This document shows, in pieces, positions 1-44,282 of a DNA stretch of 46,136 nucleotides. A program made the translations under genes and the position numbers. This stretch comes from a virus: positions 1 through 46,136 of the IMG/VR virus record IMGVR_UViG_3300029435_000010; one strand, given 5' to 3'. Position 1 is the first letter of the stretch. The number at the start of each line of letters is the position of its first letter. The notes under the pieces are model-generated. The model saw nothing but the letters and a program-made list of their open reading frames with translations. It had not been told where the DNA came from and made no database searches.

Positions 1-123
1 TCGACGGCCATGCCGTCGCAGACGGTACTTAAGGGAATCCTCGGCGAGATCCGAAACGTCGAAGGTGTGACGCGAGCAAAGATCTACGACAACGACACGA
101 GCGAGCCTGACAAGAACGGGATC
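1..123. repeat. Terminal overlap copy 1 (identical to 46014..46136)
   Basis: Base-by-base comparison by eye shows 123/123 identity. The overlap lies inside the baseplate-J coding frame. Confidence 0.95.
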
Positions 124-600
124 CCCGGTCATACGATCTCAGCAGTCGTCGAAGGCGGAGATGCGGCAAAGATTGCCGAGGTTATCCGCCGTCGCAAGTC
201 GACCGGCACAGGGACGTATGGCACGACCGAGATCGTCGTAGTCGATCCTCAGAGTATGCCGATCACGATTCGATTCTTCAGACCATTCATCGCTCACGTC
301 TACGTGCGTGTCACGGTGCGCCCGCTCACGGGCTTCTCGTCAACCTACGTCGAAGAGATCAAGTCCGAAATCGTCTCGCACATCAACGATCTCGGCATTG
401 GGTCGACCGTCTACCTGTCGAAGCTGTACGTCCCGGCGAACCTCGCCGCGAACGACCACGACAACACCTACGACATCGACACGATCGAGATCGGTACGGA
501 TAAGGGCGCTCTCGCCGCGAAGAACATCGTGACGGCCTTCAACGCCGTTCCGTTCAGCCAGGCGAGCTACATCGAGGTCGTGACCAATGACGACGATTAA
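1..600 (+). CDS. Baseplate J-like protein, C-terminal part (continuation of 45423..46136 across the circular junction)
   Basis: The frame is continuous with the open frame from ATG 45423. The gene sits between the gp25/W-like and gpI-like genes. Confidence 0.8.
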   Translation, partial: STAMPSQTVLKGILGEIRNVEGVTRAKIYDNDTSEPDKNGIPGHTISAVVEGGDAAKIAEVIRRRKSTGTGTYGTTEIVVVDPQSMPITIRFFRPFIAHVYVRVTVRPLTGFSSTYVEEIKSEIVSHINDLGIGSTVYLSKLYVPANLAANDHDNTYDIDTIEIGTDKGALAAKNIVTAFNAVPFSQASYIEVVTNDDD

Positions 601-1267
601 TGACTATCTCGAGCGCGTGCCATCGCAACACCGCGATAGACCACGCTTCAGGGAGACGCTAACCGCTTTTCTGAGCCCGATGGTTCGACTGCAGGAGCTC
701 CTTGATGAGACACCACGAAACTATGACGTCGACTTTTCCGTCGGCAAGCAGCTCGATGTCGTGGGCGAGTGGGTAGGCGTGAGCAGATATATCTCAGCGC
801 CGCTCTCTGGCATCTACTTCGAGTGGGATGGGACGCGGTCGACCGGGTGGAACGCTGGGCAGTGGAAGGGACAGTATGACCCGTCCACGGGGCTTGTCGC
901 GCTCGATGACGATACGTACAGATCGCTCATTCGGCTCTATATCGACGCAAATCGGTGGGACGGAACGACTGATGGCGCTTACGATGCGTGGGAATCTATC
1001 TTCGATAGATCCGCAATCGTGATCGAGGACCATCAGGACATGAGCTTCACGATCGGCATCGCCGGGCGGCTCAATTCGAGCGCCCAAAAAGCAATCTTCA
1101 CGACGGGTATGAGTCCCTTCAAGCCCGTGGGCATTCAAATCAAGATCTACTTCATTAGCTCAGACGGAACTTCGCCGCTTTTCGCTTGGGGCGTTCAAAC
1201 AAGCGCCCTAGACGGCTGGGGGAGAGCCGCTTGGGCAGAGAAGTACGACATGACCTTAGACCGCTGA
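587..1267 (+). CDS. Baseplate/tail protein (P2 gpI / Mu gp48-like position)
   Basis: 226-aa ORF overlapping the baseplate-J stop. Assigned by synteny, directly after baseplate J and before the fibre genes. Confidence 0.55.
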   Translation: MTTINDYLERVPSQHRDRPRFRETLTAFLSPMVRLQELLDETPRNYDVDFSVGKQLDVVGEWVGVSRYISAPLSGIYFEWDGTRSTGWNAGQWKGQYDPSTGLVALDDDTYRSLIRLYIDANRWDGTTDGAYDAWESIFDRSAIVIEDHQDMSFTIGIAGRLNSSAQKAIFTTGMSPFKPVGIQIKIYFISSDGTSPLFAWGVQTSALDGWGRAAWAEKYDMTLDR

Positions 1268-1285
1268 AATTCAGCGGTCTTTTTT
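1258..1285 (+). terminator. Rho-independent terminator-like hairpin
   Basis: The arm AGACCGCTG pairs with CAGCGGTCT and is followed by TTTTT. The hairpin overlaps the stop codon of 587..1267. Confidence 0.6.
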
Positions 1286-1297
1286 ATTGGGGGAAAA

Positions 1298-1909
1298 ATG
1301 GCTTCAACAAACTTCGTCCGTTGGGCGTCGTCGCCGGGCGCACAGCTCATGTCGGACGACAAGTACAAAGCTGCCGCCGCGACCGGCCTCGTGCCGGGCA
1401 TCGCTGACCTAGAGCAGGCGAACAAGTCCTGGCTACAGGCGAGCGCGATCGCCGAGGCGTTCGGCCATCTCGTTACGACCAACAAGGCCGCTTACGATGG
1501 CGTCGACTTCCTTGACACGGATACCGCCGAACAACTCGCCGAGAAGGTGTTCGCGGTCTTCGCAAAGCGTCTTCCGGGCGAGATCCCAAACAAAAGCATT
1601 GTCACGTCGAAGCTCGCTGACGAGTCCGTGACGATCGAGAAGCTCGCAAAGAAGCTCGACTTCGGCAGTTCTGAAATCCAGATCCGAGGAATGCCCTTGT
1701 CTCAGCTCAAGCTGGTGACGCTCAAAGACCGCGAGCTCGCTCTTGCGACGGATACCTTCCAGCTCTTCGCCGGCGACGGAAAGAGTCAAGGTGGAATCCT
1801 CATCGGTGGCGATACGGCAGCTCAGATCGTCGAGATCAGAGAGATTCTCGAAGCCCTAACCAACAGCGTTGCCAAGCTTGGCAGCCAGACGCAACCGTTC
1901 ACGGAGTAA
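1298..1909 (+). CDS. Tail fibre protein (proximal part)
   Basis: 203-aa ORF with a GGGGGA RBS, located between the baseplate genes and the tail-collar fibre tip. Confidence 0.5.
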   Translation: MASTNFVRWASSPGAQLMSDDKYKAAAATGLVPGIADLEQANKSWLQASAIAEAFGHLVTTNKAAYDGVDFLDTDTAEQLAEKVFAVFAKRLPGEIPNKSIVTSKLADESVTIEKLAKKLDFGSSEIQIRGMPLSQLKLVTLKDRELALATDTFQLFAGDGKSQGGILIGGDTAAQIVEIREILEALTNSVAKLGSQTQPFTE

Positions 1910-1912
1910 ATC

Positions 1913-2440
1913 ATGGCTATTTCAAATCCTTCTCTCACTCAGATCAAGCAGGCGCTGACGGAGATGCTTCCGAAGCTCAAGCCGTTGTCGGTTCCTACGG
2001 GCATGATCTCGGCTTTTCACACGGTTCCTGAAGGATGGCTTCAGTGCAACGGGGCGGCTGTGAGCCGCACGACGTATGCTGCGCTCTTTGCCGTCATTGG
2101 AACGAAGTACGGCTCGGGTGACGGCTCGACGACGTTCAATCTCCCGAACTTGCACCATAAGTTCATCGAGGGCACGAATACGCAGAGCGAGGTCGGGCAG
2201 TCTGTGTCGGCTGGGTTACCGAACATCACGGGCACACTCAACCCTGTGTGTCAGGAGGGAAAAGCGACCGCGCCGAGCGGCGCATTCAGTCGCACAACGG
2301 GCGGCGGCATGACTGGCTACGAATTCGCGAGAATGAAAACAAACTTTGTCTTCGACGCCTCCGACTCCTCGTCAACCTACGGCTCAGCATCAACCGTACA
2401 GCCTTCCGCACTGCGGTCGCTCCTGTGCATCAAGATTTGA
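1913..2440 (+). CDS. Tail-collar-domain fibre tip protein; constant N-terminus (1913..2218) fused to the currently expressed cassette A (2219..2440)
   Basis: Tail-collar type motifs are present: GWLQCNGAAVSRTTYAALFAVIGTKYG and FNLPNL. The C-terminus is YGSASTVQPSALRSLLCIKI. Crossover core a lies in frame at codon 103. Confidence 0.85.
   Translation: MAISNPSLTQIKQALTEMLPKLKPLSVPTGMISAFHTVPEGWLQCNGAAVSRTTYAALFAVIGTKYGSGDGSTTFNLPNLHHKFIEGTNTQSEVGQSVSAGLPNITGTLNPVCQEGKATAPSGAFSRTTGGGMTGYEFARMKTNFVFDASDSSSTYGSASTVQPSALRSLLCIKI
2219..2232 (+). repeat. Crossover core a (CCGAACATCACGGG), inside the expressed gene
   Basis: Encodes PNITG in the frame of 1913..2440. Confidence 0.85.
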
Positions 2441-2672
2441 TGCACAGCATCGTGCGAATAGTGGAGGGCTGAACCGTTGAAGAGTTGCCGTACAGGTTGC
2501 TTGAGCGGGAGGCGCTGAAGAGGACGCGGGGTCCCTCGGAAGCCCATTCGGCCGCGTTGTTGAACTGGCCCTTCTTAGCAGAACTTCTGTAGAAAGGCCC
2601 TTCTAAGATATCTCCATGCGCACTATCGAATTCCCCCGCCTTCTGAAGCGTGAAAGAACCGCTGATGTTCGG
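2430..2672 (-). other. Silent fibre C-terminal cassette B (80 aa, no start codon of its own at the core)
   Basis: Translation: PNISGSFTLQKAGEFDSAHGDILEGPFYRSSAKKGQFNNAAEWASEGPRVLFSASRSSNLYGNSSTVQPSTIRTMLCIKS-stop. Confidence 0.8.
2659..2672 (-). repeat. Crossover core b (CCGAACATCAGCGG on the minus strand)
   Basis: Encodes PNISG at the head of cassette B. It is separated by 1 nt from core c, and the two cores together create the 17-bp palindrome ATGTTCGGACCGAACAT (2665..2681). Confidence 0.8.
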
Positions 2673-2673
2673 A

Positions 2674-2687
2674 CCGAACATAACGGG
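2674..2687 (+). repeat. Crossover core c (CCGAACATAACGGG)
   Basis: Encodes PNITG at the head of cassette C. Confidence 0.8.
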
Positions 2688-2877
2688 TACAGTCACTGCG
2701 TCATGGGTAAGAGGCACTGGAGCCTTCAAAGATGTCGAAAATGGTAATTGCCCCGACGGAGACCTCAATGGACCCGCCGAAATAGACTTTTCGGCATCTC
2801 GCTCAAGCAACTTGTATGGCTCGTCTTCAACAGTGCAGCCCGCTTCAATCCGGTCGCTCTTGTGCATCAAGATTTAA
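2674..2877 (+). other. Silent fibre C-terminal cassette C (67 aa)
   Basis: Translation: PNITGTVTASWVRGTGAFKDVENGNCPDGDLNGPAEIDFSASRSSNLYGSSSTVQPASIRSLLCIKI-stop. Confidence 0.8.
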
Positions 2878-3088
2878 TGCAGAAAAGCGTGCGAACGGAT
2901 GAGGGCTGGACAGTCGTACTAGATCCGTAAGTGGAGGATGACCCGGAAGCCCGGAACAATCCAGTCTGCCCGGCAGAGCCATTTCCGTCTGAATAGCCAG
3001 AAAGCTTTACAGATCCGATAGAAAATGCGCCTGAATAATACTTTTCATATTCGTTGTCATTGTTTGGGAATTCACCTGTGATGTTCGG
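2867..3088 (-). other. Silent fibre C-terminal cassette D (73 aa; absent from the ORF track because it has no ATG)
   Basis: Hand translation: PNITGEFPNNDNEYEKYYSGAFSIGSVKLSGYSDGNGSAGQTGLFRASGSSSTYGSSTTVQPSSVRTLFCIKS-stop. Confidence 0.8.
3075..3088 (-). repeat. Crossover core d (CCGAACATCACAGG on the minus strand)
   Basis: Encodes PNITG at the head of cassette D. It lies 5 nt from core e. Confidence 0.8.
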
Positions 3089-3093
3089 ACCGT

Positions 3094-3107
3094 CCGAACA
3101 TCAGTGG
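3094..3107 (+). repeat. Crossover core e (CCGAACATCAGTGG)
   Basis: Encodes PNISG at the head of cassette E. Confidence 0.8.
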
Positions 3108-3306
3108 ACGACTCGGCGCATACGACTGTGCCGGTTCCAGTTTTACAGGAGCGTTTCGATATGCAGGCAATGAAGGCGGCCCCTCCACTGCGTGGCGAAG
3201 CGTTGCGTATTCGGATTTTGACGCCTCGCGTTCATCTTCAAAATACGGCTCTTCGTCAACCGTCCAACCAGAGTCCATCCGCCTGATCCCTTGTATCAAA
3301 TCTTGA
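3094..3306 (+). other. Silent fibre C-terminal cassette E (70 aa; no ATG)
   Basis: Hand translation: PNISGRLGAYDCAGSSFTGAFRYAGNEGGPSTAWRSVAYSDFDASRSSSKYGSSSTVQPESIRLIPCIKS-stop. Confidence 0.8.
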
Positions 3307-3514
3307 TGCAAGGGATGAGCCTCAGTGCCGAAGGCTGCACTGTGGAGCTTTTGCCGTAGACCGAGGAAGAGCGAGAGGCCATGAATGACGATTGACCGGA
3401 GCAACTCTCGGAGCCGATTGTGGTTCCGGGGTACAACTTCAAGACATTAAACGCGCCGCCAGTCCAACCGCCGCTACCGTAGTCAAGGCCCGTCACAGTG
3501 CCCGTGATGTTCGG
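3296..3514 (-). other. Silent fibre C-terminal cassette F (72 aa)
   Basis: Translation: PNITGTVTGLDYGSGGWTGGAFNVLKLYPGTTIGSESCSGQSSFMASRSSSVYGKSSTVQPSALRLIPCIKI-stop. Confidence 0.8.
3501..3514 (-). repeat. Crossover core f (CCGAACATCACGGG on the minus strand)
   Basis: Identical to core a. Heads cassette F and lies 5 nt from core g. Confidence 0.85.
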
Positions 3515-3519
3515 ACCTA

Positions 3520-3533
3520 CCGAACATCACAGG
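3520..3533 (+). repeat. Crossover core g (CCGAACATCACAGG)
   Basis: Heads cassette G. Confidence 0.8.
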
Positions 3534-3747
3534 GTATCTTTGTAAGTCAGACTTTAGCAACGACACAAGCTATACAGGCGTTTTTTCACAGACTGAGCGT
3601 GGCAGTGCCTGGGGCGGGGGTACCTCTGGATATGAGAACACTTGGGATAGGCCATATTTTTCCGCTAGAGCATCTAACAGCGCCTATGGTTCGTCATCTG
3701 TCGTTCAACCAGCCTCGATTCGCATGACGCTGTGCATCAAGCTTTGA
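3520..3747 (+). other. Silent fibre C-terminal cassette G (75 aa; no ATG)
   Basis: Hand translation: PNITGYLCKSDFSNDTSYTGVFSQTERGSAWGGGTSGYENTWDRPYFSARASNSAYGSSSVVQPASIRMTLCIKL-stop. Confidence 0.8.
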
Positions 3748-3958
3748 TGCACAAGAGCAGTCGCGTCGAACTCGGCTGAACCACAGAAGACGATCCGTAC
3801 ACAGACGAAGAACGTGAAGAGTTCATCGTTACGCGGCCTCCGTCATGAGCGCCGCCTTGATTAGAATTCAAGCCGATGCGTGCTTCCCCAGTAAATGCTC
3901 CAGTGCAGTTCAGCCCTGAGGTATTCCCGTGCTCAGTAAATGTACCCGTGATGTTCGG
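3737..3958 (-). other. Silent fibre C-terminal cassette H (73 aa)
   Basis: Translation: PNITGTFTEHGNTSGLNCTGAFTGEARIGLNSNQGGAHDGGRVTMNSSRSSSVYGSSSVVQPSSTRLLLCIKA-stop. Confidence 0.8.
3945..3958 (-). repeat. Crossover core h (CCGAACATCACGGG on the minus strand), distal boundary of the shufflon
   Basis: Identical to core a. Heads cassette H and is the last site before the recombinase gene. Confidence 0.85.
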
Positions 3959-4050
3959 GACTCGGATTTGCATGTCATAGAGCGCTCTCTATGTCGTGCC
4001 GGGCACATGAGCGGGCTTCATCTGCAACTCGGCGAAACCCGCGATAGTAG

Positions 4051-5193
4051 CTACTTCCAGGCGATCATGCCGGCACTTTCAGCACAAGCGCGGACGTGCT
4101 CACTCCAACGATCTATGACTGAGCGTCTGGCGTCGAAAAAGTCTGAGCGCTGATAGGCTCGACTCACCTGCGTTCCGATGTCGTGGCTTAGGCACATCTC
4201 GGCGACGTCGAAAGGGACGGCCTCGTCTGCAAGCCACGATCGAGCGATCGAGCGCAGACCGTGCGCGACGAGGTGTCCTCTGAGCGACGTGCTGTGCAGA
4301 TGTTTCGCTAAGGTCTGAGCGCTGATGTGCCTTCCAGTCACGCGGGCTGCGAAGACGAAGGCGCAGCGAGGATGCGGAGAAAGCGCCGCTTCGCGCTCGA
4401 GGAGCTCCCGCATGAAGCCAGTCAGTGGCAAGCGAAAGGGCTTGCGCTTTTTCATGTGCTCGGCGGGGATCTCGATCACGTCGTCGTGGATCCATGACTT
4501 CTCGAGCTTGGCGTTCTCGCCCGGACGGAGCATCGAGCAGAGCGAGAAGAGAAAAAGTATTTGCATCCGCTCGGGCGCGTCCGCCATGACACGCATCACC
4601 TCGGGCAGATCTTTCCACCCGACGGCTGGCATCGGCGTCACGGTGGGCGGGGCGAAGACTCTCGAGACTCTGGCGAGCGGATTGTGCTCGATGTAGCCGG
4701 CGCAGACGGCCAAATCAAGCACTTCTCGCAGGCGCATGAGCACGCGCTTGAGCGTCGCACGCTTCCCTGCCTGCTCGAGCGGCATGACGGCCCTGATGAC
4801 AAGGGGTGCAGTGATCTCGTCGAGCTGACGCCCGCCCAACGGTTTCACGATGTAGCGCTCGAGTCTGCGGCGCTCATCTTGGTAGCTCACGATCTGCGGC
4901 TTCTTGAGCCTGCACCAAAGACGAAAAGCGTCACGCAGGCAGTACCCGCGCGGCGGTTCGAGCCCGACCTCTTTTCGGAGGCGTCGGGCTTTTTGTCGTG
5001 CTTGCGCGAGATTCATGTCTGGGTACTCGCCGAGCTTTTTGTCTGCGACACGGCCTGAGCACGACGTGCGCAGATACCAGATCTTTCGCCCTGACGGCAT
5101 GACTCGCAAAGTCAGTCCGTTGCCGTCGGCGATTGAATACCTTTTTTCACGCGGCTTCAATGCCGCGATTTTTTTAGAGGAGAGAGTAGTCAC
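4051..5193 (-). CDS. Tyrosine site-specific recombinase (P4-integrase-like, arm-type N-terminal domain); candidate shufflon invertase
   Basis: GTG start at 5193 lies 4 nt after GGAGG. N-terminus LKPREKRYSIADGNGLTLRVMPSGRKIWYLR. Catalytic-type motifs LRPGE, HGLRS, LSH and RAYQRSD. The gene abuts the last crossover site. Confidence 0.8.
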   Translation of the reverse strand: MTTLSSKKIAALKPREKRYSIADGNGLTLRVMPSGRKIWYLRTSCSGRVADKKLGEYPDMNLAQARQKARRLRKEVGLEPPRGYCLRDAFRLWCRLKKPQIVSYQDERRRLERYIVKPLGGRQLDEITAPLVIRAVMPLEQAGKRATLKRVLMRLREVLDLAVCAGYIEHNPLARVSRVFAPPTVTPMPAVGWKDLPEVMRVMADAPERMQILFLFSLCSMLRPGENAKLEKSWIHDDVIEIPAEHMKKRKPFRLPLTGFMRELLEREAALSPHPRCAFVFAARVTGRHISAQTLAKHLHSTSLRGHLVAHGLRSIARSWLADEAVPFDVAEMCLSHDIGTQVSRAYQRSDFFDARRSVIDRWSEHVRACAESAGMIAWK

Positions 5194-5781
5194 ATGACCT
5201 CCGATTTCAAGACGGCGTATCGCTTTGATGACGCCGGGTACTTCGAGCACGAGCTTTCCGTCCAAGTGATTGACGGCGAAGCGCTCATGCCGCCGTCCGC
5301 AACCTTGCTGCCTCCCTGGGGCGATGCAAAGCCGGACGACAAGGTTTTCTACCGCTTCGACGGCGAGTCGTGGAAGTCGGAAGCAAAGCCTACGTGCGCA
5401 GCCGATCTTGTCGGTGTGGTGGTTTCTCATCAGTCTCAGACGCCGCGCGACATCGAAATGCGCTCGCTCATCCAGAAGTTCTCTCAGGAAGAGGGTTATC
5501 GCGAAAAGCGCGGCGAGGACCTCTCGTGGTCCCTCGAGAAGATCCCTGAAAAGACTGAGGAAGAAAAACTGACTGAGGCGAAGCAGTCCGTTCGCTCGAA
5601 GCGCGATCGCTTAATCGCCGATACGGACTACCTGCTGACGCCTGACTACCCGATCAGCCCTGACGAGCTTGAGGTCGTCAAGGCATACAGAACTGCGCTG
5701 CGTGACGTACCGCAGCGGGAAGGCTTCCCTTACGACGTTGTCTGGCCTGAGCTTCCTGAAGTGCTTGCAAAGAAGAAGTAA
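5194..5781 (+). CDS. Tail fibre assembly protein (Tfa-type chaperone)
   Basis: C-terminal signature RDRLIADTDYLLTPDYPISPDELEVVKAYRTALRDVPQREGFPYDVVWPELP is typical of Caudovirales tail fibre assembly proteins. Confidence 0.75.
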   Translation: MTSDFKTAYRFDDAGYFEHELSVQVIDGEALMPPSATLLPPWGDAKPDDKVFYRFDGESWKSEAKPTCAADLVGVVVSHQSQTPRDIEMRSLIQKFSQEEGYREKRGEDLSWSLEKIPEKTEEEKLTEAKQSVRSKRDRLIADTDYLLTPDYPISPDELEVVKAYRTALRDVPQREGFPYDVVWPELPEVLAKKK

Positions 5782-5790
5782 GGAGGCGGG

Positions 5791-6147
5791 ATGGCCACTA
5801 CTCTCGACATCCACGTCGATCAGGGCTCGGATGTCCGAGTGCCGATCGCTTTCATCGACGATTTCTCTGAGCTTGATCTGACGGGGTTTAGCGCTCGTAT
5901 GGAGATACGCCCGTCGGCATCAAGCAAAAAGGTGGTTGATCGTCTCACCACGGAGAACTCGCGCATCTCAATCGAGAAGGAGACGCTCACGCTTCTCTGG
6001 CCGCACGAAGTCACTGAAAACCTGCCGGCAGGCAGCTACGTCTATGACCTTGAGCTTGCCTCTGAAGGCGGAGAAGTCACGCGCGCGCTAAGTGGACGAG
6101 TTCAAGTGTGCAAGGAGGTGACGCAATGGCCTACGGCGACTGCGTGA
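5791..6147 (+). CDS. Hypothetical structural protein
   Basis: 118-aa ORF with an AAGGAGG RBS, located in the fibre cluster. Confidence 0.6.
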   Translation: MATTLDIHVDQGSDVRVPIAFIDDFSELDLTGFSARMEIRPSASSKKVVDRLTTENSRISIEKETLTLLWPHEVTENLPAGSYVYDLELASEGGEVTRALSGRVQVCKEVTQWPTATA

Positions 6148-6572
6148 TCCCGCCGATGGGATACCCGGGGTGCTATCCAGCACCCCCGCCCGTCGGTGGG
6201 CGGCGCGTAGTGAGAGTAAGCGTTCCTGGCATTCAAGGCCCGAGGGGCGAGCCGGGATCGCAAGGCTACTCGATCAGAGTCTGTGCTTCGCTCGATGCTT
6301 TCGAGACGACTGCACTTGAAAACCTTAGACCGTCGCTCGGCGCAAAGGCTGGCGATTCGGTCGTCAACTCAAGCGGACAAATCTTCATCATCACGAACAC
6401 TACCGAGTCGACATTCACTGTCGGTGAAGTCGTTGGCTGTCTGGGCGTGCGCATTGATGATGCGGATGTATCCGTTGAGAAAGTCTGGTCCTCTCAAAAG
6501 ATTCAGGAGCGCTTAGGCGAGCCCGTTGACTTTGTGAAGACCTTTGAATCCGAGTTGGACTCGGGAATTTAA
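6126..6572 (+). CDS. Hypothetical fibre-associated protein with a short collagen-like stretch
   Basis: ATG 6126 is preceded by AAGGAGG. Contains GIQGPRGEPGSQG (four G-X-Y triplets plus a closing G). Confidence 0.55.
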   Translation: MAYGDCVIPPMGYPGCYPAPPPVGGRRVVRVSVPGIQGPRGEPGSQGYSIRVCASLDAFETTALENLRPSLGAKAGDSVVNSSGQIFIITNTTESTFTVGEVVGCLGVRIDDADVSVEKVWSSQKIQERLGEPVDFVKTFESELDSGI

Positions 6573-6594
6573 TCGCAACAAGGAGTTTGCAAAA

Positions 6595-7332
6595 ATGGCT
6601 GAACTTAAGGATCTGGAAACTCGCGGCAAAGAGCTTGCCGAGCGCGTTGGCCAGGAGATCAAGAAGGTTCGAGGTGAAATCGCCGCCGGTGGACAGGCCA
6701 CGTCCGCCGATAAGGTGTCCTACAACGGCAAGACTGTCCAGGAAGCTCTCGACGACCTGAACTACATGCCCATTCAGATCACGTCTTTCACGAACACCGT
6801 GAACGTGGTCGAAATGGGCGCAACGGTTGACACGGTCACGCTGAAGTTTGCATTCAACAAGAAGCCGAAATCTCTCACGCTTGATGGCCAGCAGGAAGAC
6901 GTCAACGCAACGACGAAGGAGCTCACTGGCCTCGGTCTCACGGCGAACAAGACCTGGAGCCTCACCGCCAAGGACGATCGCGAAGCTACGTCCACTAAGA
7001 CGACGTCGGTCTCCTTCCTCAACGGTGCTTACTGGGGCATCGGCGCTGTCGAAGCTGACGGCGTTACGGACGAATTCGTCAAGGGTCTTCAGAAGGCCCT
7101 GACCGGCTCCAAGGCTCGAGAATTCACCGTGAACGCAACGGAAGGTCAGTACATCTACTACGCCATCCCGACTCGCTTCGGCACGCCTGCCTTCTTCGTC
7201 GGCGGCTTCGAGGGCGGCTTTGCCAAGCTGAAGACCTTCGACTTCACGAACGCTTCCGGCTACCAGGAAAGCTACGACGTGTATCGCTCTGACAACGTGG
7301 GTCTTGGTTCTACCAAGGTCACGGTCAAGTAA
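6595..7332 (+). CDS. Hypothetical structural protein
   Basis: ATG 6595 (MAELKDLE...) follows an AAGGAG RBS. Located in the fibre cluster. Confidence 0.6.
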   Translation: MAELKDLETRGKELAERVGQEIKKVRGEIAAGGQATSADKVSYNGKTVQEALDDLNYMPIQITSFTNTVNVVEMGATVDTVTLKFAFNKKPKSLTLDGQQEDVNATTKELTGLGLTANKTWSLTAKDDREATSTKTTSVSFLNGAYWGIGAVEADGVTDEFVKGLQKALTGSKAREFTVNATEGQYIYYAIPTRFGTPAFFVGGFEGGFAKLKTFDFTNASGYQESYDVYRSDNVGLGSTKVTVK

Positions 7333-7352
7333 ATCGAAGGAGGCAAAGAAAA

Positions 7353-8381
7353 ATGGCAATCGAACTTATCGGTAAGATCAAGCAAAAGAACAATGGTTCC
7401 TTTGCTCTCGTCGACTCTCAGGACATCGATCATGAGGGTAAGCGACTGAACGTCGTTCTTCAGGAACTCAATGACGTCGGAACGGGTGTAACGGCTCTCA
7501 CTCAGCGCGTTGAAGCCAACGAAGGCAATATCACCGCCCTTCAGGGCGAAGTCGCAAAGAAGGTCGAAATTGACGACGCTCAGGCTTCTGCTACGAAGAC
7601 CTACTCGTCTCAGAAGGTCGACTCCCAGATCACTGCCGCCAAGCAGGCTGTGAAGGACGATCTTCTCGGCGGTGCCGGCGAAGCATACGACACCCTGAAA
7701 GAACTCGCTGACGCTCTCGTCACGAACAAGGACGCGATCACCGCTCTCCAACAGATCGCTCAGGGTCACGTTCAGTTCGACAAAGCTCAGGCTCTGAATG
7801 ACGATCAGAAGAAGCAGGCTCGTGCGAACATCGGCGCTTTGAGTGCCGCAGTTGAAAAGAGCGGCGTTGCTCTTGACACGCTGACTGAAGAAGGCTCTTA
7901 CGTCGTCACGGGTGCTACTGGTCTTCCTGCCGACTTCACGGCTGATCCCGTTTTTGTGACTGTCATGAAGGCCGGCACGGCAACGGTTCAAATGGTCGGT
8001 GGCGTTCAGGGCGCTGAGTACAAGCTCTTTGCTCGTACTGCGGCCGACGGCGCGTATGGCAAGTTTGCTCAGATCGGCGCAAAGACTGATCTGACTGACT
8101 ATGCCAAGAAGAGCGAAGTCACGACTCAGATCAGTGAAGCTGTCAACCCGGTGAAGACGACTGCCGAAGCCGCTCAGGCAAAGGCGACTGAAAACGCTGG
8201 CAAGATCACGACCCTCGAGTCGACCGTCGGTGAGCACACGACGAAGCTTTCTTCGCTTGAAGGTCAGGTGCAGACGAACACCCAGGCGATCCAGAAGAAC
8301 GCCGGCGACATCACGACGATCAACGCAAACATCGGCGCGAAGCAGGACTTCGTCGCCGCCTTTGAAGCCGCTTTGGCCTAA
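7353..8381 (+). CDS. Tail fibre-like protein (coiled-coil rich)
   Basis: 342 aa. Heptad-like repeats and the DTLKELADAL motif are common in phage fibres. Strong RBS. Confidence 0.6.
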   Translation: MAIELIGKIKQKNNGSFALVDSQDIDHEGKRLNVVLQELNDVGTGVTALTQRVEANEGNITALQGEVAKKVEIDDAQASATKTYSSQKVDSQITAAKQAVKDDLLGGAGEAYDTLKELADALVTNKDAITALQQIAQGHVQFDKAQALNDDQKKQARANIGALSAAVEKSGVALDTLTEEGSYVVTGATGLPADFTADPVFVTVMKAGTATVQMVGGVQGAEYKLFARTAADGAYGKFAQIGAKTDLTDYAKKSEVTTQISEAVNPVKTTAEAAQAKATENAGKITTLESTVGEHTTKLSSLEGQVQTNTQAIQKNAGDITTINANIGAKQDFVAAFEAALA

Positions 8382-11557: not shown

Positions 11558-12754
11558 TCACTTCTTCTTCGGCATGATCGTGTCGGCCCACGACTGCATG
11601 ACGGGACGACGTAGTTCACATAGGTCGTCACGCTGATATGTTTGCTCAACGGCGTTGCCGGTTGCGTGCATCAAGCATTTCTCTGCGACGACTCTGTCCA
11701 CACTGTTTCTGGCCGCCCAGTCTCGGAAGGTCGAACGGAATCCGTGCATTGTTACTTTGCCGTCTGTGAGCCTGCTGACCGTGTGATACGGGTTGTCGAT
11801 GCGGATTGGTCTGTGCGCCCAGTAAGGCGATGGAAAGAGCGGTCCCTTTTGGCTCGGGTTAGCGGCAAGCAGCACTTCAATGGCTTGATCGCTCAGAGGG
11901 ACACGGTGCGGGAAAGGCTTGCGGTCCTTTCTGCGAGCAGGCGGGATGTACCAGATGCGCTCTTCGAGATTGATTTCATCCCATAACGCGAGCGTAAATT
12001 CCTTTCGGCGCGTGGCGGTCAAGATGCCGAAGAGTGCGGCAAGACGTGAAGAAGGCTCTCCGACCTCGCCTGCAAGCAATCGACTGGCAATGTTGATCGC
12101 CTCATCAAGCGTAGCGGCAGGGCAATGCCTGGTGGTGTAGATGCGCTGAGGTGATGGCAACCACGCATCCAAATTGCCGCGCCAAGTGGCTGGATTCTCT
12201 TTGGTGTAAAACCCTTCACGCTTTGCATAGGCAAATACGGTCTCCAAGAAACCACGGGCTTTGATGCCTGTCGGAGTCTGATCCTTCCAGAGCGGATTGA
12301 GGATTGAAAGGATGTGAGACGTTTCGACCTCTTTAATCGGCATGTCTCCGATGTGCTGGACGGCGAGGCCGAGGATACACCGACGCCATTCATTGATGCT
12401 GTGCTTGTTCTTGTATTGCTTGACCTCAATGATGATCGGGATGATGCGCTCGGCATATTCCTTGAATGTTGGTTCGTGCTTTGTCTTTCCCGGTGCTTTC
12501 TTTTCTTCTCTGAAAGCCTTCGGGTCGACTCCCTGTGTGAGGAGGGTGTGGCATTTGAGCGCCTCATCCTTCGCCATTTGAATTTTGATGATTGCCGGAT
12601 CCCCTAGCGAGAGATCCTTGCGCTTTCCGTCGAATGTGTATCGGAAGACAAACGATCTGCTGAGTCCGTTTCTTCGGACGACGAGGTACAAATTCGGCGC
12701 GATCTTATATCGTCCATCGCCTACTGTCAGAATGTTTTTGGCCGTTATGTTCAT
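11558..12754 (-). CDS. int: Phage integrase (tyrosine recombinase, P4-like with arm-type N-terminal domain)
   Basis: Start is MNITAKN at 12754. Motifs ATRRKE, HGFRSTFRDW, LMH and QTYQRDD. Adjacent to arm-type repeats and a Xis-like gene. Confidence 0.85.
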   Translation of the reverse strand: MNITAKNILTVGDGRYKIAPNLYLVVRRNGLSRSFVFRYTFDGKRKDLSLGDPAIIKIQMAKDEALKCHTLLTQGVDPKAFREEKKAPGKTKHEPTFKEYAERIIPIIIEVKQYKNKHSINEWRRCILGLAVQHIGDMPIKEVETSHILSILNPLWKDQTPTGIKARGFLETVFAYAKREGFYTKENPATWRGNLDAWLPSPQRIYTTRHCPAATLDEAINIASRLLAGEVGEPSSRLAALFGILTATRRKEFTLALWDEINLEERIWYIPPARRKDRKPFPHRVPLSDQAIEVLLAANPSQKGPLFPSPYWAHRPIRIDNPYHTVSRLTDGKVTMHGFRSTFRDWAARNSVDRVVAEKCLMHATGNAVEQTYQRDDLCELRRPVMQSWADTIMPKKK

Positions 12755-13048
12755 GGTGTGTCCCACAAAATTGAATCCCCGAGGTGCCGAACGGGCCTTT
12801 TGTCCCACAGTTGTCCCACAGGCTGACAGCGTGTAGGCGGTGTGCAGGTGGCGTGACGGTAGCGGGGGTACGGCCATGCTAACACGAAAAACCCCGCTAC
12901 ATAGCGGGTATGTAGCGGGGTAGTGGTTAGCATGTAGCTAGGCTGTAGAGGAGCCGATCACTTAGAAGCGGAAGTCGCTGAGTGTTGTGTCGCAGGGCAT
13001 TTTGTTGTGGTCATTTGTTTTGTCCCACGGATTGTCCCACGCCGAGCA
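12755..13048. promoter_or_regulatory. Candidate attP: five direct TGTCCCAC arm-type repeats flanking a ~60-bp imperfect palindrome
   Basis: TGTCCCAC occurs at 12759, 12801, 12812, 13021 and 13033, all in the same orientation. The palindrome CATGCTAAC...GTTAGCATG spans 12874..12934. Confidence 0.5.
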
Positions 13049-17873: not shown

Positions 17874-18710
17874 TTACTGAGCAGTCAGGGCGCGGTAGCA
17901 GGACAGTTGCCTCACGCTGTAGCCGTTACGCTCGAGCATGTCCTCGATGGAACCGAGGTTCATGCTCGTTACGGCTTCGTAGAAGCGAGGCGCAAAAGGC
18001 GACTGGAGGAGACGCATCAGCTTGAGAACGGTCTCGAGGTCTTCGCGGAAGAGGTACCTCCAGTAGTAGACGAAAGTCCGCAGGTTCTCGGCCTCATGCG
18101 CGGAGAGAACGATCGACCCCGCGGGAATGGGGTGCAGGCCACAGTGGGGGCAGCCGCCGTCGGGGCGCGTGGCGTGCGGCACCTCGGGAACGTCGAGCTC
18201 CACCTCTTTGATGAAATCGAGGCAGTCTTCGAGTTGGGTGCGAGGCAGTTGGTCGTATCGTGCGATCTGGTAGCGTGCCTTGATGGCGCGGTAGATCGTC
18301 CGATAGTTCGATGCGGTCTTATGCGCACGGATGGCGACTTCGCGCTGAATGGCGCGCTGCTCGGCGGGCGTGATTGTTTCCTGTGCTTCGTAGCGTCCAG
18401 TCTTGCGAATAGCAGGAAGAACTTCGGACGTGACCCAGCGCTTGAAGCGCTTTGCGGATTCGAGCTTGGAGCCGAAGATCAGAGCGTAGAGGCCGGACTC
18501 GTTGACGCAGTTGACGACCTGGCGACCGCCAGCGGTTTCGATCTCGGACTTGATGAGGTCTTCGGGGTCGACGTGCTGTTTGATCGCGTTTGTCTTGTCT
18601 TTGTATCCGAGAGCACCAGCGGCATCAACGGCGACAAAGAGCGGGAGGTCAGGCGTGCCGAGCGCACGGACTTGAGCGTTCTCGAATGAGAAAACGGAAG
18701 GGATAGACAT
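17874..18710 (-). CDS. BRO-N domain antirepressor-like protein
   Basis: Start is MSIPSVFSFENAQVRALGT at 18710. Motifs FVAVDAAGALGYKD, ESGLYALIFGSKLESAKRFKRWVTSEVLPAIRKTGRY. Confidence 0.8.
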   Translation of the reverse strand: MSIPSVFSFENAQVRALGTPDLPLFVAVDAAGALGYKDKTNAIKQHVDPEDLIKSEIETAGGRQVVNCVNESGLYALIFGSKLESAKRFKRWVTSEVLPAIRKTGRYEAQETITPAEQRAIQREVAIRAHKTASNYRTIYRAIKARYQIARYDQLPRTQLEDCLDFIKEVELDVPEVPHATRPDGGCPHCGLHPIPAGSIVLSAHEAENLRTFVYYWRYLFREDLETVLKLMRLLQSPFAPRFYEAVTSMNLGSIEDMLERNGYSVRQLSCYRALTAQ

Positions 18711-18854
18711 AGCTTGTCTCCATTCTGAGGTTGTTGACCTCGTTCCATCCGCCAAGATGGAGGGCGAGGGCTTGCGGGTTGGCGGACCGGCAGAATGGAC
18801 CCGGCGCACCTTTCGGTGCCCCGCAAGCCCTACCCATAAAAAGGAGACTTGCAG

Positions 18855-18883
18855 GGGGGTGGTGAAACGCCACCCCCTTTTTT
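18855..18883 (+). terminator. Plus-strand terminator opposing the antirepressor leader
   Basis: GGGGGTGG pairs with CCACCCCC and is followed by TTTTTT. No plus-strand CDS ends here. Confidence 0.55.
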
Positions 18884-18923
18884 GGGTGAGGTGGTGAAAC
18901 GCAACCCCGTCACGCATAGCCAA

Positions 18924-18956
18924 CAAAAAAGCCGCTCGATGAACGGTCGGCGGCTA
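18924..18956 (-). terminator. Terminator-like hairpin after 19048..19425
   Basis: On the minus strand, an AGCCGCCGA...TCGAGCGGCT stem is followed by TTTTTTG. Confidence 0.5.
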
Positions 18957-22677: not shown

Positions 22678-23145
22678 TCACAGAATGTCCCTGAAGTCAA
22701 ATACTTGGAAGGTGCCGTTTTCAACCTTTACTGAGCCTGTGACGCCGTATCCTGCGAGAATTCCCGTGAAGATTTCGCACATGGTACCGGCGGGCAAAGT
22801 CAGATAGTTGTATTCGCGCTTCCCATCCTCGCCATCTTTGCATAGAAGCGGAAGTGAAAGGCGCTTGTAGCTCAGCGTGTAAAGCATGTCACACTTGGCC
22901 CAGCACTTTAAGTCTTGGTACGCTGGAGAAATCGGCGTACAAAGATTGATCTCAACGCTGTACGGTCGTTTTACCATGGGTTCTGTTGTGCTCAATGGAA
23001 CTACCGTGGTGTATCCGAAGCGATTCCTGTCCTTGGGTGAAATGCACACCACGGGGCGTCGCTTGACCATTTCGGGCTTTTCCAAATCCTTCGGGAAATC
23101 GCAGATCAAGATTTGACCGACTGCCGGCTGAAAACGGATAGGCAT
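22678..23145 (-). CDS. PemK/MazF-fold (YifN-like) protein, toxin-like moron candidate
   Basis: N-terminus GQILICDFPKDLEKPEMVKRRPVVCISP...TVVPLST resembles the PemK/MazF-superfamily pattern. Confidence 0.5.
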   Translation of the reverse strand: MPIRFQPAVGQILICDFPKDLEKPEMVKRRPVVCISPKDRNRFGYTTVVPLSTTEPMVKRPYSVEINLCTPISPAYQDLKCWAKCDMLYTLSYKRLSLPLLCKDGEDGKREYNYLTLPAGTMCEIFTGILAGYGVTGSVKVENGTFQVFDFRDIL

Positions 23146-30113: not shown

Positions 30114-30596
30114 ATGACTGAAAAAAAGAAAAGCCTTGGTGCTTCCAAAAAGGCGCAGGGTCGACCTACCGATTACACGCTTGATAAAGCCGATCAGATC
30201 TGTGAGTGGTATTCCAACGGACAGACTTTGACCGCTTGCTGTCGAGAACTGGGAATCGGAAGGACAACGCTCTATCGATGGATGGTCGCACATCCTGAAT
30301 TTTCGGAACGTCTCGCGCGCGCGCGGGAATTGTTTGCGGACTCTCTCGCTGATGAATGCCTGGCTATTGCAGACAACACTGAAGAAGGTCAGATCATCGA
30401 AGAGGGCACGAACGAAAACGGAGCCTTCAGCAAGATCAAGCGAGTGGACATGATCGATCATCGCAAGCTGAAGGTCGACACCCGGCTCAAGCTACTGGCT
30501 AAGTGGGCACCGGCTCGATACGGCGATAAGAAACAGGTTGACGTGAACAACGTCACGCCCGTGCAGGTTGTCTTTAAGGACGACTTGGAGGACTGA
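30114..30596 (+). CDS. terS: Terminase small subunit
   Basis: HTH GRPTDYTLDKADQICEWYSNGQTLTACCRELGIGRTTLYRWM. Immediately upstream of terL. Confidence 0.8.
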   Translation: MTEKKKSLGASKKAQGRPTDYTLDKADQICEWYSNGQTLTACCRELGIGRTTLYRWMVAHPEFSERLARARELFADSLADECLAIADNTEEGQIIEEGTNENGAFSKIKRVDMIDHRKLKVDTRLKLLAKWAPARYGDKKQVDVNNVTPVQVVFKDDLED

Positions 30597-43437: not shown

Positions 43438-44282
43438 TGAGAAACTACGGACGAAAGATCGGGCTTCTCATCGCGGGCAGCTCTGGTGATGCGATCGATC
43501 TCTCGGGATTTCGCGTCGTCTTCTCTGTCGAAAAGACGGCTGCCGAGCAGCCGAACAAAGCGAAGATCGAGATCTGGAATCTGTCTGATACGACGGCTTC
43601 TATGCTCCTCACGGGCAAGATGACGCGCATCGTCCTGCAGGCCGGCTACGTCGACAACTCGGCAGTGCTCTTCGACGGGAACATCATCGCCGCCAAGCGC
43701 ATCCGACAGGGGACTGACGTGATCGTCTCGATTGATGCGGGCGACGGCGATAAGTCGTACAGCTTCGCGGTCGTTCAGCAATCGATCGCGTCAGGATACT
43801 CCAGCGCAGACGTCGCCAAGGCCTCGGTCACCGAGCTTCAGGCGAAGGGCGCACGAGGCGCAAGCGTCGACGCCATCAAGGCCGAAACCAAGTTCCCGAG
43901 AGGTCGCGTCATGTTCGGTGCAGCTCGCAAGTTCGCACGCGAAGTTGCGAAGACGACAGAATGCCAGTGGTCGATTCAGGACGGGCAAGTCGTCTTCTGC
44001 AAGGTAAAGTCCGCGACCGAGGGTGCGCAGGCTTTCCTGCTCTCGCCATCGAGTGGCTTGGTCGGAGCGCCAACGGTGGACAAAGACGGCGTCAAAGCTG
44101 CCTGCTGTCTCAATCCTCAGCTCCACATCTACGACCCGATTCAAATTCACAGCGAGTTTGTCGACGGCACCTACAAGATCCTGACAGTCAAGCACTCGGG
44201 CGATACGCACGGGAACACTTGGACGACAGAGATCTCCGGGACGCTGCTCGATGCCTCCACATCGGAGACAACGCAGACATGA
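43437..44282 (+). CDS. Baseplate hub-like protein
   Basis: About 281 aa (GTG 43434 is an alternative start). Lies before the spike gene. Confidence 0.5.
   Translation: MRNYGRKIGLLIAGSSGDAIDLSGFRVVFSVEKTAAEQPNKAKIEIWNLSDTTASMLLTGKMTRIVLQAGYVDNSAVLFDGNIIAAKRIRQGTDVIVSIDAGDGDKSYSFAVVQQSIASGYSSADVAKASVTELQAKGARGASVDAIKAETKFPRGRVMFGAARKFAREVAKTTECQWSIQDGQVVFCKVKSATEGAQAFLLSPSSGLVGAPTVDKDGVKAACCLNPQLHIYDPIQIHSEFVDGTYKILTVKHSGDTHGNTWTTEISGTLLDASTSETTQT

Follow-up and report, generated by a model that had tools for sequence, protein, structure and literature searches.

Several described inversion systems resemble the phage locus reported here. The Rin shufflon, found in Bifidobacterium and Eggerthella prophages (Mavrich et al. 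2018, PMC6109161; PMC8778435), is likewise phage-encoded and places promoterless C-terminal cassettes, lying between short asymmetric repeats, behind the constant N-terminal part of a receptor-binding protein. Its adjacent tyrosine recombinase is distinct from the prophage integrase, and inversions between related genomes break at the repeats. The R64/IncI1 shufflon (Rci, sfx, pilV) resembles the locus in having four segments, a tyrosine recombinase next to them and short head-to-head sites that are separated by small spacers and conserved on only one of their sides; what varies there is likewise the C-terminus of an adhesin-like specificity protein. In phiCh1, phiH1 and ChaoS9, the tyrosine recombinase Int1 beside the fibre genes inverts them and changes the expressed fibre, and these viruses encode a second tyrosine integrase, int2, away from those genes (PMC6471424). 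A preprint on a BV01-like Phocaeicola phage (PMC13596623) also describes a gut temperate phage with tail-fibre cassettes and a flanking recombinase, with three cassettes, six isoforms, a 10-bp directional motif and reads that show all configurations. Inversion further switches the fibre C-terminus in the Gin (Mu), Cin (P1), Pin (e14), Min (p15B) and FRphi gin (PMC13418256) systems, and both Min and FRphi are multi-segment.

We analysed a window of 46,136 nucleotides (the whole of IMG/VR record IMGVR_UViG_3300029435_000010) from a temperate, contractile-tail-type gut phage of Sutterellaceae with a genome of roughly 46 kb. Comparison of genomes and proteins, rather than of reads, supports the reading that positions 1913-5193 are very probably a multiple-inversion shufflon by which a small Collar-domain tail fibre changes its receptor-binding tip.

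Organization of the fibre locus

The module begins with a DUF2612/Phage_Wedge1 baseplate wedge protein (587..1267, plus strand; Pfam PF11041, E 6.6e-46), and DUF2612 proteins were found to be enriched beside programmed-inversion targets in a published survey (PMC9881135). It is followed by a fibre-associated protein (1298..1909, plus strand) with a marginal Mtd_N match (Pfam PF18454, E 6.5e-06) and a PHROG annotation as tail fibre protein. This product may be the proximal part of the fibre, and an identical copy adjoins differently arranged arrays in related loci. The constant part of the fibre gene itself, codons 1-102 (1913..2218, plus strand), carries a Collar domain at residues 32-85 (PF07484, E 6.6e-23). 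The tail fibre assembly chaperone (5194..5781, plus strand; Pfam PF16778, E 9.5e-20; PHROG tail fibre assembly) lies outside the invertible region, and its ATG directly abuts the start codon of the recombinase. Structure prediction for the fibre reached a pLDDT of only 44, so family annotation is the basis for assigning receptor binding to the tip.

Behind codon 102 are four segments bounded by eight core sites of the form CCGAACATCA(C/G)NGG, which alternate between strands. Motif search located all eight where an earlier note on this sequence had placed them, with 0-2 mismatches each to CCGAACATCACGGG: cores a, c, e and g at 2219-2232, 2674-2687, 3094-3107 and 3520-3533 on the plus strand, and cores b, d, f and h at 2659-2672, 3075-3088, 3501-3514 and 3945-3958 on the minus strand. 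Core a falls in frame at codon 103 of ORF 1913-2440 (1913 + 3x102 = 2219). Head-to-head cores are spaced by 1, 2, 3 or 5 nt and are therefore separate sites. At up to 3 mismatches, CCGAACATCACGGG matches 13 positions in the window, compared with 5.5 on average and at most 10 in shuffled sequence. Five of the 13 lie outside the array, with 2-3 mismatches each, and the sole 2-mismatch one among them (43905-43918) opens no cassette framework.

Each segment is a tail-to-tail pair of cassettes. Invertible segment 1 (2219..2672, cores a and b) consists of cassette A (2219-2440, plus), which is currently expressed, and cassette B (2430-2672, minus); segment 2 (2674..3088, cores c and d) of C (2674-2877, plus) and D (2867-3088, minus); segment 3 (3094..3514, cores e and f) of E (3094-3306, plus) and F (3296-3514, minus); and segment 4 (3520..3958, cores g and h) of G (3520-3747, plus) and H (3737-3958, minus). 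An in-frame cassette opens from every core, with lengths of 73, 80, 67, 73, 70, 72, 75 and 73 aa for A to H, in agreement with the 67-80 codons given earlier, and all eight carry the framework PNI[T/S]G...(G)AF...AS.SS..YG.SS.VQP.S.R...CIK-x-stop. At a random position and frame of this window, the chance of a frame staying open for 67-80 codons and then stopping is 0.047, and that of eight such frames is about 2e-11. For four segments the previously calculated 384 arrangements are correct as a count of signed permutations. The spacer between core h and the recombinase stop codon (3959..4050) is conserved in an alignment of 14 close loci and contains small palindromes (GTGCCGGGCAC; GCGGGCTTC...GAAACCCGC); it could be a terminator or an accessory site.

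The earlier note had also stated that only cassette A is attached to a start codon and that at least D, E and G have no ATG. Most cassettes do lack a start, but the statement is not strictly true for C and H, and G contains an ATG, for a Met close to the end of the cassette. For H, an in-frame ATG of its own lies five codons 5' of the core (ORF 3737-3973), and the neighbouring inverted core supplies C with one (ATG TTC GGA CCG AAC...). These two starts favor the idea that the cassettes are independently expressed small proteins and not alternative C-termini, an idea that we find barely credible: translated from these starts, C and H would yield free pieces of ~70-78 aa that lack the Collar domain, most cassettes have no start codon at all, and every cassette begins exactly at the common core, in frame with the constant region. 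Additionally, full-length fusions with each of six other cassettes exist in other contigs, as public fibre proteins that join the constant N-terminus to cassette C (100% cassette identity), D (95%), E (100%, P0147), F (94%, P0208), G (99%) or H (100%).

Rearrangement among related phages

The 28 loci compared hold 180 cassettes in 73 types, with the same segments at different positions and in both orientations. All evidence for rearrangement comes from comparing different assemblies with one another, and the window's own assembly holds a single arrangement. Between phages of 97-99% nucleotide identity, inversions and permutations are bounded by cores, which bears out the proposed structure of a constant fibre N-terminus, four invertible segments and eight C-termini. 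In L049, whose backbone is 97.7-99.2% identical to that of the window, the sequence departs from the window exactly at core a and continues as positions 3958->3501 in reverse (98.9% identity), with cassette H expressed; an a x h inversion would leave such a left junction. L005 and L013 (about 99% identical) differ by a 910-bp two-segment block, inverted and relocated, with cores at both of its ends. The A/B segment of the window occupies position 4 in L009 (97% nucleotide identity), in inverted orientation and with the breakpoint at 2219. Segment 2 is inverted in L005, where D is expressed, occupies first place in L006 and L010, and is found at 99.5% identity in the Mu-like-baseplate phage L050, while G/H is seen in either orientation, depending on the locus. 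Among the best 120 fibre homologues, the 102-aa N-terminal part is present in 114 and is there 90-100% identical to the window, PNI[T/S]G is found in 118 (starting at residue 103 in 114), and the C-termini comprise 49 types. Judged from these genomes, the fibre-tip switch is real and widespread across metagenomes.

We considered whether the array is instead a static library of fibre-tip pseudogenes, with differences arising through occasional RecA-dependent recombination or horizontal exchange. A conserved 3' framework of about 55 nt recurs among the cassettes in inverted orientation (I1/I2), and near-identical segments are common to different phage backbones. Cassettes are also re-paired between some loci (e.g. 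F with E, t14, t19 or t20), which needs recombination in the 3' framework, and therefore homologous recombination also shapes the array. However, the breakpoints lie at cores of 11-14 bp, too short for efficient homologous recombination, the cassettes are open and framework-conserved at every locus, and a dedicated recombinase adjoins the arrays. The cores themselves also speak against a static library. Among 120 unique sites, CCGAACAT, A9 and GG12-13 are invariant, even at the third codon positions of Pro and Asn, where changes would be synonymous, yet in other lineages the core differs locus-wide: it is CCAAACAT at 12/13 sites of L014, the 13th being CCAAACAG, and CCGAATAT at 6/6 sites of L046. 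We consider a static library very improbable and retain the shufflon reading. The number of segments among relatives ranges from 1 to 7, so deletion or acquisition occurs and strict inversion-only behaviour is not a given. Arrays hold 8 cassettes in the window, up to 12 in its own clade and from 4 to at least 14 beside homologues of the recombinase.

The adjacent tyrosine recombinase

The ORF at 4051..5193 (minus strand, GTG start at 5193) encodes a 380-aa P4-type protein, a putative shufflon invertase. Its assignment as a tyrosine recombinase was upheld by Pfam matches to Arm-DNA-bind_3 (2e-17), Phage_int_M (6.3e-14) and Phage_integrase (3.6e-12); the box I R, HxxR, H and Y motifs are readable in its three-domain translation, and its equivalent in related contigs is called as a 380-aa gene. 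By sequence it is an ordinary-looking P4-family integrase (phrog_1 'integrase'; NCBIfam PRK09692 below cut-off), and its PDB matches are only to the CP4-like integrase arm domains 3jtz/3ju0. A relationship to Rci was rejected (BLASTP E 0.33, different domain architecture). To our knowledge, no invertase of this P4-type integrase subfamily is known. Homologues 58-99.7% identical adjoin arrays in all 13 of the cassette-bearing IMG/VR loci that include such a gene, in Ca. Aphodousia and, on a different phage backbone, in a Mu-like-baseplate prophage of Sutterella wadsworthensis.

The phage encodes a second P4-type tyrosine recombinase, identified by Pfam (11558..12877, minus strand). It is likely the true prophage integrase, and is located where the late genes meet the leftward early operon, the usual lysogeny position. 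As the earlier note had reported, no serine recombinase is visible: none was found by Gin-based tblastn and phmmer in the six-frame translation of the phage or by Pfam in 78 ORFs, where the only match was HTH_7 in the small terminase.

These enzymes bear on whether the locus is a true shufflon with inversions catalysed in trans, by the second integrase or a host invertase, leaving the adjacent recombinase another job such as integrating the module or a satellite. Both recombinases belong to the broad P4-like family, the adjacent one has an integrase-type arm domain, and Mpi is cited as an invertase acting in trans in other bacteria (PMC6109161). Nevertheless, catalysis in trans appears unlikely, as the adjacency of the clade to arrays is kept down to about 58% identity and on two unrelated phage backbones, the two recombinases are only 34% identical and only over 128 C-terminal residues, and the equivalent second integrase of L048 is found at the edge of the phage genes, beside host genes. 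Conservation of this linkage suggests that the shufflon enzyme is most likely the adjacent recombinase (4051-5193), a paralogue of the phage's own integrase with an arm-type DNA-binding domain.

Proposed mechanism

We propose that core a would recombine with any core of opposite orientation in a conservative site-specific reaction, inverting the intervening DNA and joining another cassette in frame at Pro103-Asn-Ile. Exchange between inverted cores inside the array would flip or re-order segments, so that all eight tips could be reached. The tip cassettes would be promoterless and expressed through the constant 102-codon head. Crossover would most likely occur within the invariant CCGAACAT. 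As for the control of directionality, we infer that the sites, asymmetric and half-conserved like R64 sfx, would favor inversion over deletion. The outcome would be a mixed phage population with differing adsorption specificities, and a probable effect on host range.

Comparison with known systems

Inversion of phage fibre genes by tyrosine recombinases is already published, and the novelty implied in the earlier note gives way to the precedence of Rin and of Int1; the window holds a new version of a known mechanism. The Rin enzyme is set apart by its description as XerD-like without an arm-binding domain, whereas that of the window is P4-type with Arm-DNA-bind_3. Rin acts at an 11-bp rix site, TTCCCTAACCC, compared with CCGAACATCAC here, and on the receptor-binding protein of TP901-1/1358-like siphophages with about 5 cassettes, whereas in the window the target is a Collar-domain fibre, the phage is of contractile-tail type with a Gram-negative host, and 8 cassettes (up to 14 in relatives) form tail-to-tail pairs. 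In the haloarchaeal viruses phiCh1, phiH1 and ChaoS9, two full-length convergent fibre genes with repeat clusters flank the recombinase, while here it adjoins a cassette array with discrete cores. The BV01-like phage differs in host phylum, motif (TGGGAGAACT) and fibre family. Gin, Cin, Pin, Min and FRphi use serine invertases with a Fis-dependent enhancer, unlike the window, where none of serine type was found, and in Mu the chaperone gene lies within the invertible segment, whereas here it is outside and constant. The likeness to R64 drawn earlier was borne out when its sfx sites were inspected directly, as they have the same head-to-head arrangement; the R64 site, GTGCCAATCCGGTACNTGG, is unrelated to the window core, and its target is a conjugative pilus adhesin instead of a phage fibre.

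Genome context and host

The window carries a 123-bp terminal direct repeat (1-123 and 46014-46136), so it probably represents a complete circular (or terminally redundant) genome of ~46.0 kb. Its source is a temperate tailed phage, with genes for small and large terminase, portal, capsid, a DUF3383 protein, an E217/Pam3-type baseplate, holin, lysozyme, a CI-like repressor, SSB, dUTPase and a PemK toxin. Its hosts are placed in the Sutterellaceae lineage, which is represented by Sutterella wadsworthensis, uncultured Sutterella sp. and Candidatus Aphodousia. The early region encodes, both on the minus strand, a Bro-N/ORF6C/P22_AR_C antirepressor-type protein (17874-18926) and the PemK/MazF-like toxin (22678-23145), neither of which is related to the shufflon. 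Megablast with positions 1-8000 of the window as query found nothing in 50,697 phage records.

The fibre module comprises a DUF2612 wedge protein (587-1267), a fibre-associated protein (1298-1909) and the Collar-domain fibre (1913-2440; PF07484, E = 6.6e-23), followed after the array by a tyrosine recombinase on the opposite strand to the fibre (4051-5193) and a tail-fibre assembly chaperone (5194-5781). At 5191-5196 the GTG start of the recombinase (5193, minus strand) abuts the chaperone ATG (5194, plus strand); because these divergent genes have no intergenic DNA between them, late transcripts that cross the array would read the recombinase gene in antisense. Scanning 1200-5900 for promoters and terminators yielded no signal beyond that in shuffled sequence, and an AlphaFold2 model of the fibre, built from 64 aligned sequences, had a mean pLDDT of 43.8 and could not be used.

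Organization of the fibre-tip array

The core CCGAACATCACGGG at 2219 on the plus strand starts at codon 103 of ORF 1913-2440, and seven near-copies with at most two mismatches follow at 2659-2672 (-), 2674 (+), 3075-3088 (-), 3094 (+), 3501-3514 (-), 3520 (+) and 3945-3958 (-), which reproduces the coordinates of the earlier note. These eight cores, four per strand, delimit four segments. Allowing up to three mismatches, the window contains 13 matches to the core, whereas 100 shuffles gave 5.5 on average and never more than 10. Five of the 13 lie outside the array with two to three mismatches each, and the only one of these with two, at 43905-43918, opens no cassette framework.

We found that the frames opened by the cores run for 73, 80, 67, 73, 70, 72, 75 and 73 residues, and translation of all eight agreed with the in-frame cassettes of 67-80 codons and the shared framework claimed for them. 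Every cassette begins with PNI[T/S]G and ends with ...AS.SS..YG.SS.VQP.S.R...CIK-x-stop, and all eight are open and in frame with their core as alternative C-termini on one constant N-terminal region. The probability that a frame at a random window position stays open for 67-80 codons before a stop is 0.047, giving a probability of ~2e-11 for all eight. Two further statements, that only cassette A is attached to a start codon and that cassette G has no ATG, proved slightly inaccurate: H has an in-frame ATG (ORF 3737-3973), C can be read from an ATG within the neighbouring inverted core, and a Met codon is present in G.

The eight cassettes are arranged tail to tail as four pairs, A/B, C/D, E/F and G/H, each bounded by inverted cores, with a gap of 1 or 5 nt between the head-to-head cores of neighbouring pairs in the window. 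Paired cassettes overlap by 11 nt across both stop codons (2421-2444, 2858-2881, 3287-3310 and 3728-3751), and this overlap is a conserved near-palindrome, for example TGCATCAAGATTTGATGCA, consisting of two CIK-x-stop ends on opposite strands. The conserved 3′ frameworks of ~55 nt are inverted repeats, which could account for the re-pairing of cassettes observed between loci.

Rearrangement between related loci

Exact-protein look-ups with the neighbouring genes identified many contigs whose flanking genes match those of the window, and in these the Collar gene encodes 169-180 aa and the array varies in size. The backbone of contig L049 is 97.7-99.2% identical to that of the window. At core a its sequence jumps exactly to window 3958-3501 in reverse at 98.9% identity, so that H is the expressed cassette. 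An inversion between cores a and h is expected to produce just such a left junction; the join of constant head to cassette H reads TGTCGGCTGGGTTACCGAACATCACGGGTACATTTACTGAGCACG and is 98.9% identical to the window across it. Between two contigs that are ~99% identical, L005 and L013, a 910-bp block of two segments is inverted and relocated beside the constant region, and the ends of the block coincide with cores. Additionally, a further contig (L009) carries the A/B segment of the window inverted and in fourth position, at 97% identity. L001 (JGI 3300029788) shares the cassette arrangement of the window, and the phage also occurs in ENA ERZ28636208 / SAMN05971447, ERZ28596598 and the Logan runs ERR11478145, SRR28382030 and SRR24164647.

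Searching IMG/VR with the head-to-head core pattern gave 27 loci, 17 of which bear arrays of 2 to 14 cassettes. The other 10 were set aside, as they contain no cassettes, recombinase homologue or fibre constant region and probably match the 18-base pattern by chance. Across 28 loci we counted 180 cassettes of 73 types (80% amino acid clusters), and segments such as G/H, C/D and A/B recur in either orientation and at different positions. PNI[T/S]G is present in 118 of the 120 best fibre homologues in the database and starts at residue 103 in 114, whose 102-residue N-terminus is 90-100% identical to that of the window (median 96%). The C-termini of the 120 fall into 49 types, and the homologues include fusions of the constant head to window cassettes C, D, E, F, G and H with cassette identities of 94-100%. 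The fibre N-terminus of Ralstonia phage Dina resembles that of the window (47.6% identity, residues 1-101), but no recombinase or cassette array is annotated within 5 kb either side of its fibre gene.

These comparisons, which are between assemblies and not among reads from one population, support the proposal in the earlier note that the array shuffles: in relatives at 97-99% identity, segments appear inverted or moved with breakpoints at the cores, and alternative fusions occur in public proteins. The array may still be active. Several contigs (L002/L012, L013, L026, L030 and L049) end in the array or within 50 bp of it, which hints at several arrangements within a population and fits the behaviour of assemblers where DNA is heterogeneous or repeated. 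L002 (1-527) and L012 (8662-8706) are the two ends of ENA ERZ28636208 scaffold_418 and carry the same 45-bp post-array sequence, which follows H at one end and D plus two non-window cassettes at the other. This suggests either two array variants co-existing in one sample or an assembly-graph artefact.

The putative crossover site

In close relatives the core is CCGAACATCAC. Among 120 unique sites from these relatives CCGAACAT, A9 and GG12-13 are invariant, and variation is confined to the third base of the Ile codon and the Thr/Ser codon (positions 9, 11 and 12). The synonymous third positions of the Pro (CCG) and Asn (AAC) codons do not vary in the 120 sites although the scan tolerated such changes, which argues that the core is constrained as DNA and not only as protein. 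In other lineages the core differs from this one and is uniform within a locus. A locus with a recombinase 63% identical to that of the window (L014) has CCAAACAT in 12 of 13 sites, the 13th, beside the recombinase, being CCAAACAG; all six sites of L046, where the enzyme is 65% identical, are CCGAATAT. Core and enzyme do not strictly co-vary with distance, because some recombinases at 58-60% identity still use CCGAACAT.

Conservation is limited to the core and its cassette side, and the head-to-head gap may be 1, 2, 3 or 5 nt. This one-sided conservation and variable spacing make each core a separate asymmetric site, as are the sfx sites of R64. By analogy with Rci/sfx, crossover would take place within CCGAACAT and the asymmetry of the site would limit recombination to inverted pairs. 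The conserved 92-bp spacer at 3959-4050 contains no convincing arm-type repeats, only small palindromes and a weak ACTCGG duplication.

The candidate invertase

The gene at 4051-5193 (-), 92 bp away from core h, encodes the one recombinase in the vicinity of the array. The catalytic Tyr of this enzyme is read as the Y of ...SRAYQRSD..., and its arm domain is placed in residues 1-80. Its Arm-DNA-bind_3 (E = 2e-17), Phage_int_M and Phage_integrase domains all score above Pfam gathering cut-offs in a P4-type architecture, confirming that the neighbouring enzyme is a tyrosine recombinase. The PHROG match is phrog_1 integrase and the sole solved-structure match is the arm domain of CP4-like integrases (3jtz/3ju0), while NCBIfam PRK09692 scored 173 bits, below its curated cut-off of 434. 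Among isolated phages even the nearest integrases do not exceed 34% identity to it, and nearly all of the 120 closest homologues retain the arm domain. The absence of a visible serine recombinase was likewise borne out, as Mu Gin gave a best E of about 2-3 against the window (tblastn, and phmmer on the six-frame translation) and Pfam detected none in 78 ORFs. A Pfam match to HTH_7, a "resolvase HTH", belongs to the small terminase (30114-30596) and was discounted.

A second recombinase with the same three-domain architecture is encoded at 11558-12877 (-), where the late genes adjoin the leftward early operon, and is presumably the true prophage integrase. Identity between the two enzymes is only 34%, over 128 C-terminal residues. 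A role for 4051-5193 in integration or excision at an att site is argued against by its position between the fibre and chaperone genes and by the second integrase at the lysogeny position. Wherever a cassette-bearing IMG/VR locus includes a homologue (13 loci, 58-99.7% identity), that homologue adjoins the array. Ca. Aphodousia has a homologue beside an array of at least 13 cassettes, and prophages whose baseplate is Mu-like and wholly different also carry a homologue beside the array (L046, six cassettes; L048, PAITG-type repeats); a second integrase adjoins host genes in L048 and lies at the contig end in L046. The case for the adjacent recombinase as the putative invertase, made up of its being the sole nearby enzyme, the separate integrase and the conserved linkage, is circumstantial but consistent.

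Array variants and spread between phages

Several loci depart from the layout of the window. L041 (IMGVR_UViG_3300045988_122156) has a 12-cassette array at 3117-6531 with inward-facing constant fibre heads on both sides and no recombinase between them, the second head being a 210-aa ORF (5899-6531, minus strand) with a different N-terminus. It is either a double-ended shufflon serving two fibre genes or a chimeric assembly made through shared cassettes. The 14 cassettes of L028 (112-3506) have irregular strands (+-+-+--++---+-) and are not in strict tail-to-tail pairs, and this array may contain partial or rearranged segments. The array-adjacent recombinase is called as truncated (244 or 279 aa) in L007 (7438-8172) and L005 (8813-9652), and L007 has a single segment, whose cassette is a hybrid of P and D in the 3′ framework. 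In these two contigs the system may be in decay, or the gene calls may be wrong as in L011, where the apparent lack of a recombinase was a gene-calling artefact and an intact gene is present. In L048 (9417-10461), a 71%-identical recombinase and a Collar fibre of 510 aa are accompanied by four occurrences of CCGGCCATCACAGG (PAITG), two per strand; the cassette framework of other arrays is missing, and the motif may be a further diverged core variant.

L050, a locus with a Mu-like baseplate (Gp45/46/Baseplate_J/Gp48), contains at 5306-6161 the C/D and G/H segments of the window (2673-3092 and 3501-3958) at 99.5% and 98.7% identity, and its fibre constant region is only 88% identical. Such near-identical segments beside a diverged constant region indicate that the cassette library moves between phage lineages, and cassette segments appear, from these alignments, to be exchanged horizontally between unrelated backbones. 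On balance we lean towards a reading in which an arm-bearing paralogue of a P4 integrase was domesticated as a dedicated invertase and, with the constant Collar head and the cassette library, forms a portable module across unrelated Sutterellaceae phage backbones (E217/Pam3-like and Mu-like baseplates) that share no fewer than 73 tip types, with as many as 14 cassettes per array. If so, these would be among the largest phage shufflons known to us and the enzyme would be a new recombinase lineage for programmed inversion, in which the arm domain might supply directionality control, a problem posed by armless invertases such as Rin.

The Sutterellaceae have been little studied although they are common in the gut, and a large, horizontally shared fibre-tip library may allow their temperate phages to hedge their host range. 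The array breaks metagenomic assemblies, several contigs ending within it, and one reference sequence under-represents the receptor-binding repertoire of a phage. Because the window enzyme keeps its arm-binding domain, it could help to reveal how tyrosine invertases come to invert DNA in preference to deleting it.

Comparison with known systems

Classical inversion of phage fibre genes depends on the serine invertases Gin, Cin, Pin and Min. These have a resolvase-family serine recombinase beside the invertible DNA, whereas none was found in the window. The premise of the earlier note that all known phage systems use serine invertases is out of date, since fibre inversion by tyrosine recombinases has been published. 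The Rin shufflon of Bifidobacterium prophages was presented as the first phage-encoded tyrosine invertase (PMC6109161) and Rin was later described in Eggerthella prophages (PMC8778435), and Int1 inverts tail-fibre genes in the haloarchaeal viruses phiCh1, phiH1 and ChaoS9 (PMC6471424). A further report describes a shufflon in a BV01-like Phocaeicola phage with read-level evidence (PMC13596623), and a survey of programmed inversion lists tail fibre proteins among the targets and DUF2612 proteins as enriched neighbours (PMC9881135).

The likeness to R64 in layout was upheld on direct inspection of its sfx sites, which are separate and asymmetric. The 19-bp sfx consensus GTGCCAATCCGGTACNTGG is unrelated to CCGAACATCACGGG, and R64 Rci gave nothing significant against the window recombinase and six-frame translation (BLASTP and phmmer, E >= 0.33). 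Rin is described as armless and XerD-like (PMC6109161), which sets it apart from the Arm-DNA-bind_3 enzyme of the window; it acts at the rix site TTCCCTAACCC, compared with CCGAACATCAC here, and its target is a TP901-1/1358-type RBP instead of a Collar-domain fibre. The window enzyme would thereby be a third tyrosine recombinase lineage for programmed multi-inversion after Rci and Rin, distinguished from the latter by description. Within the library searched, we found no paper on a Sutterellaceae-phage shufflon or its family. What seems new is a library of Collar-domain fibre tips in Sutterellaceae phages, a different and larger site and cassette architecture, and a candidate invertase from the arm-bearing P4 integrase family, not of the armless Rin/XerD-like or Rci types.
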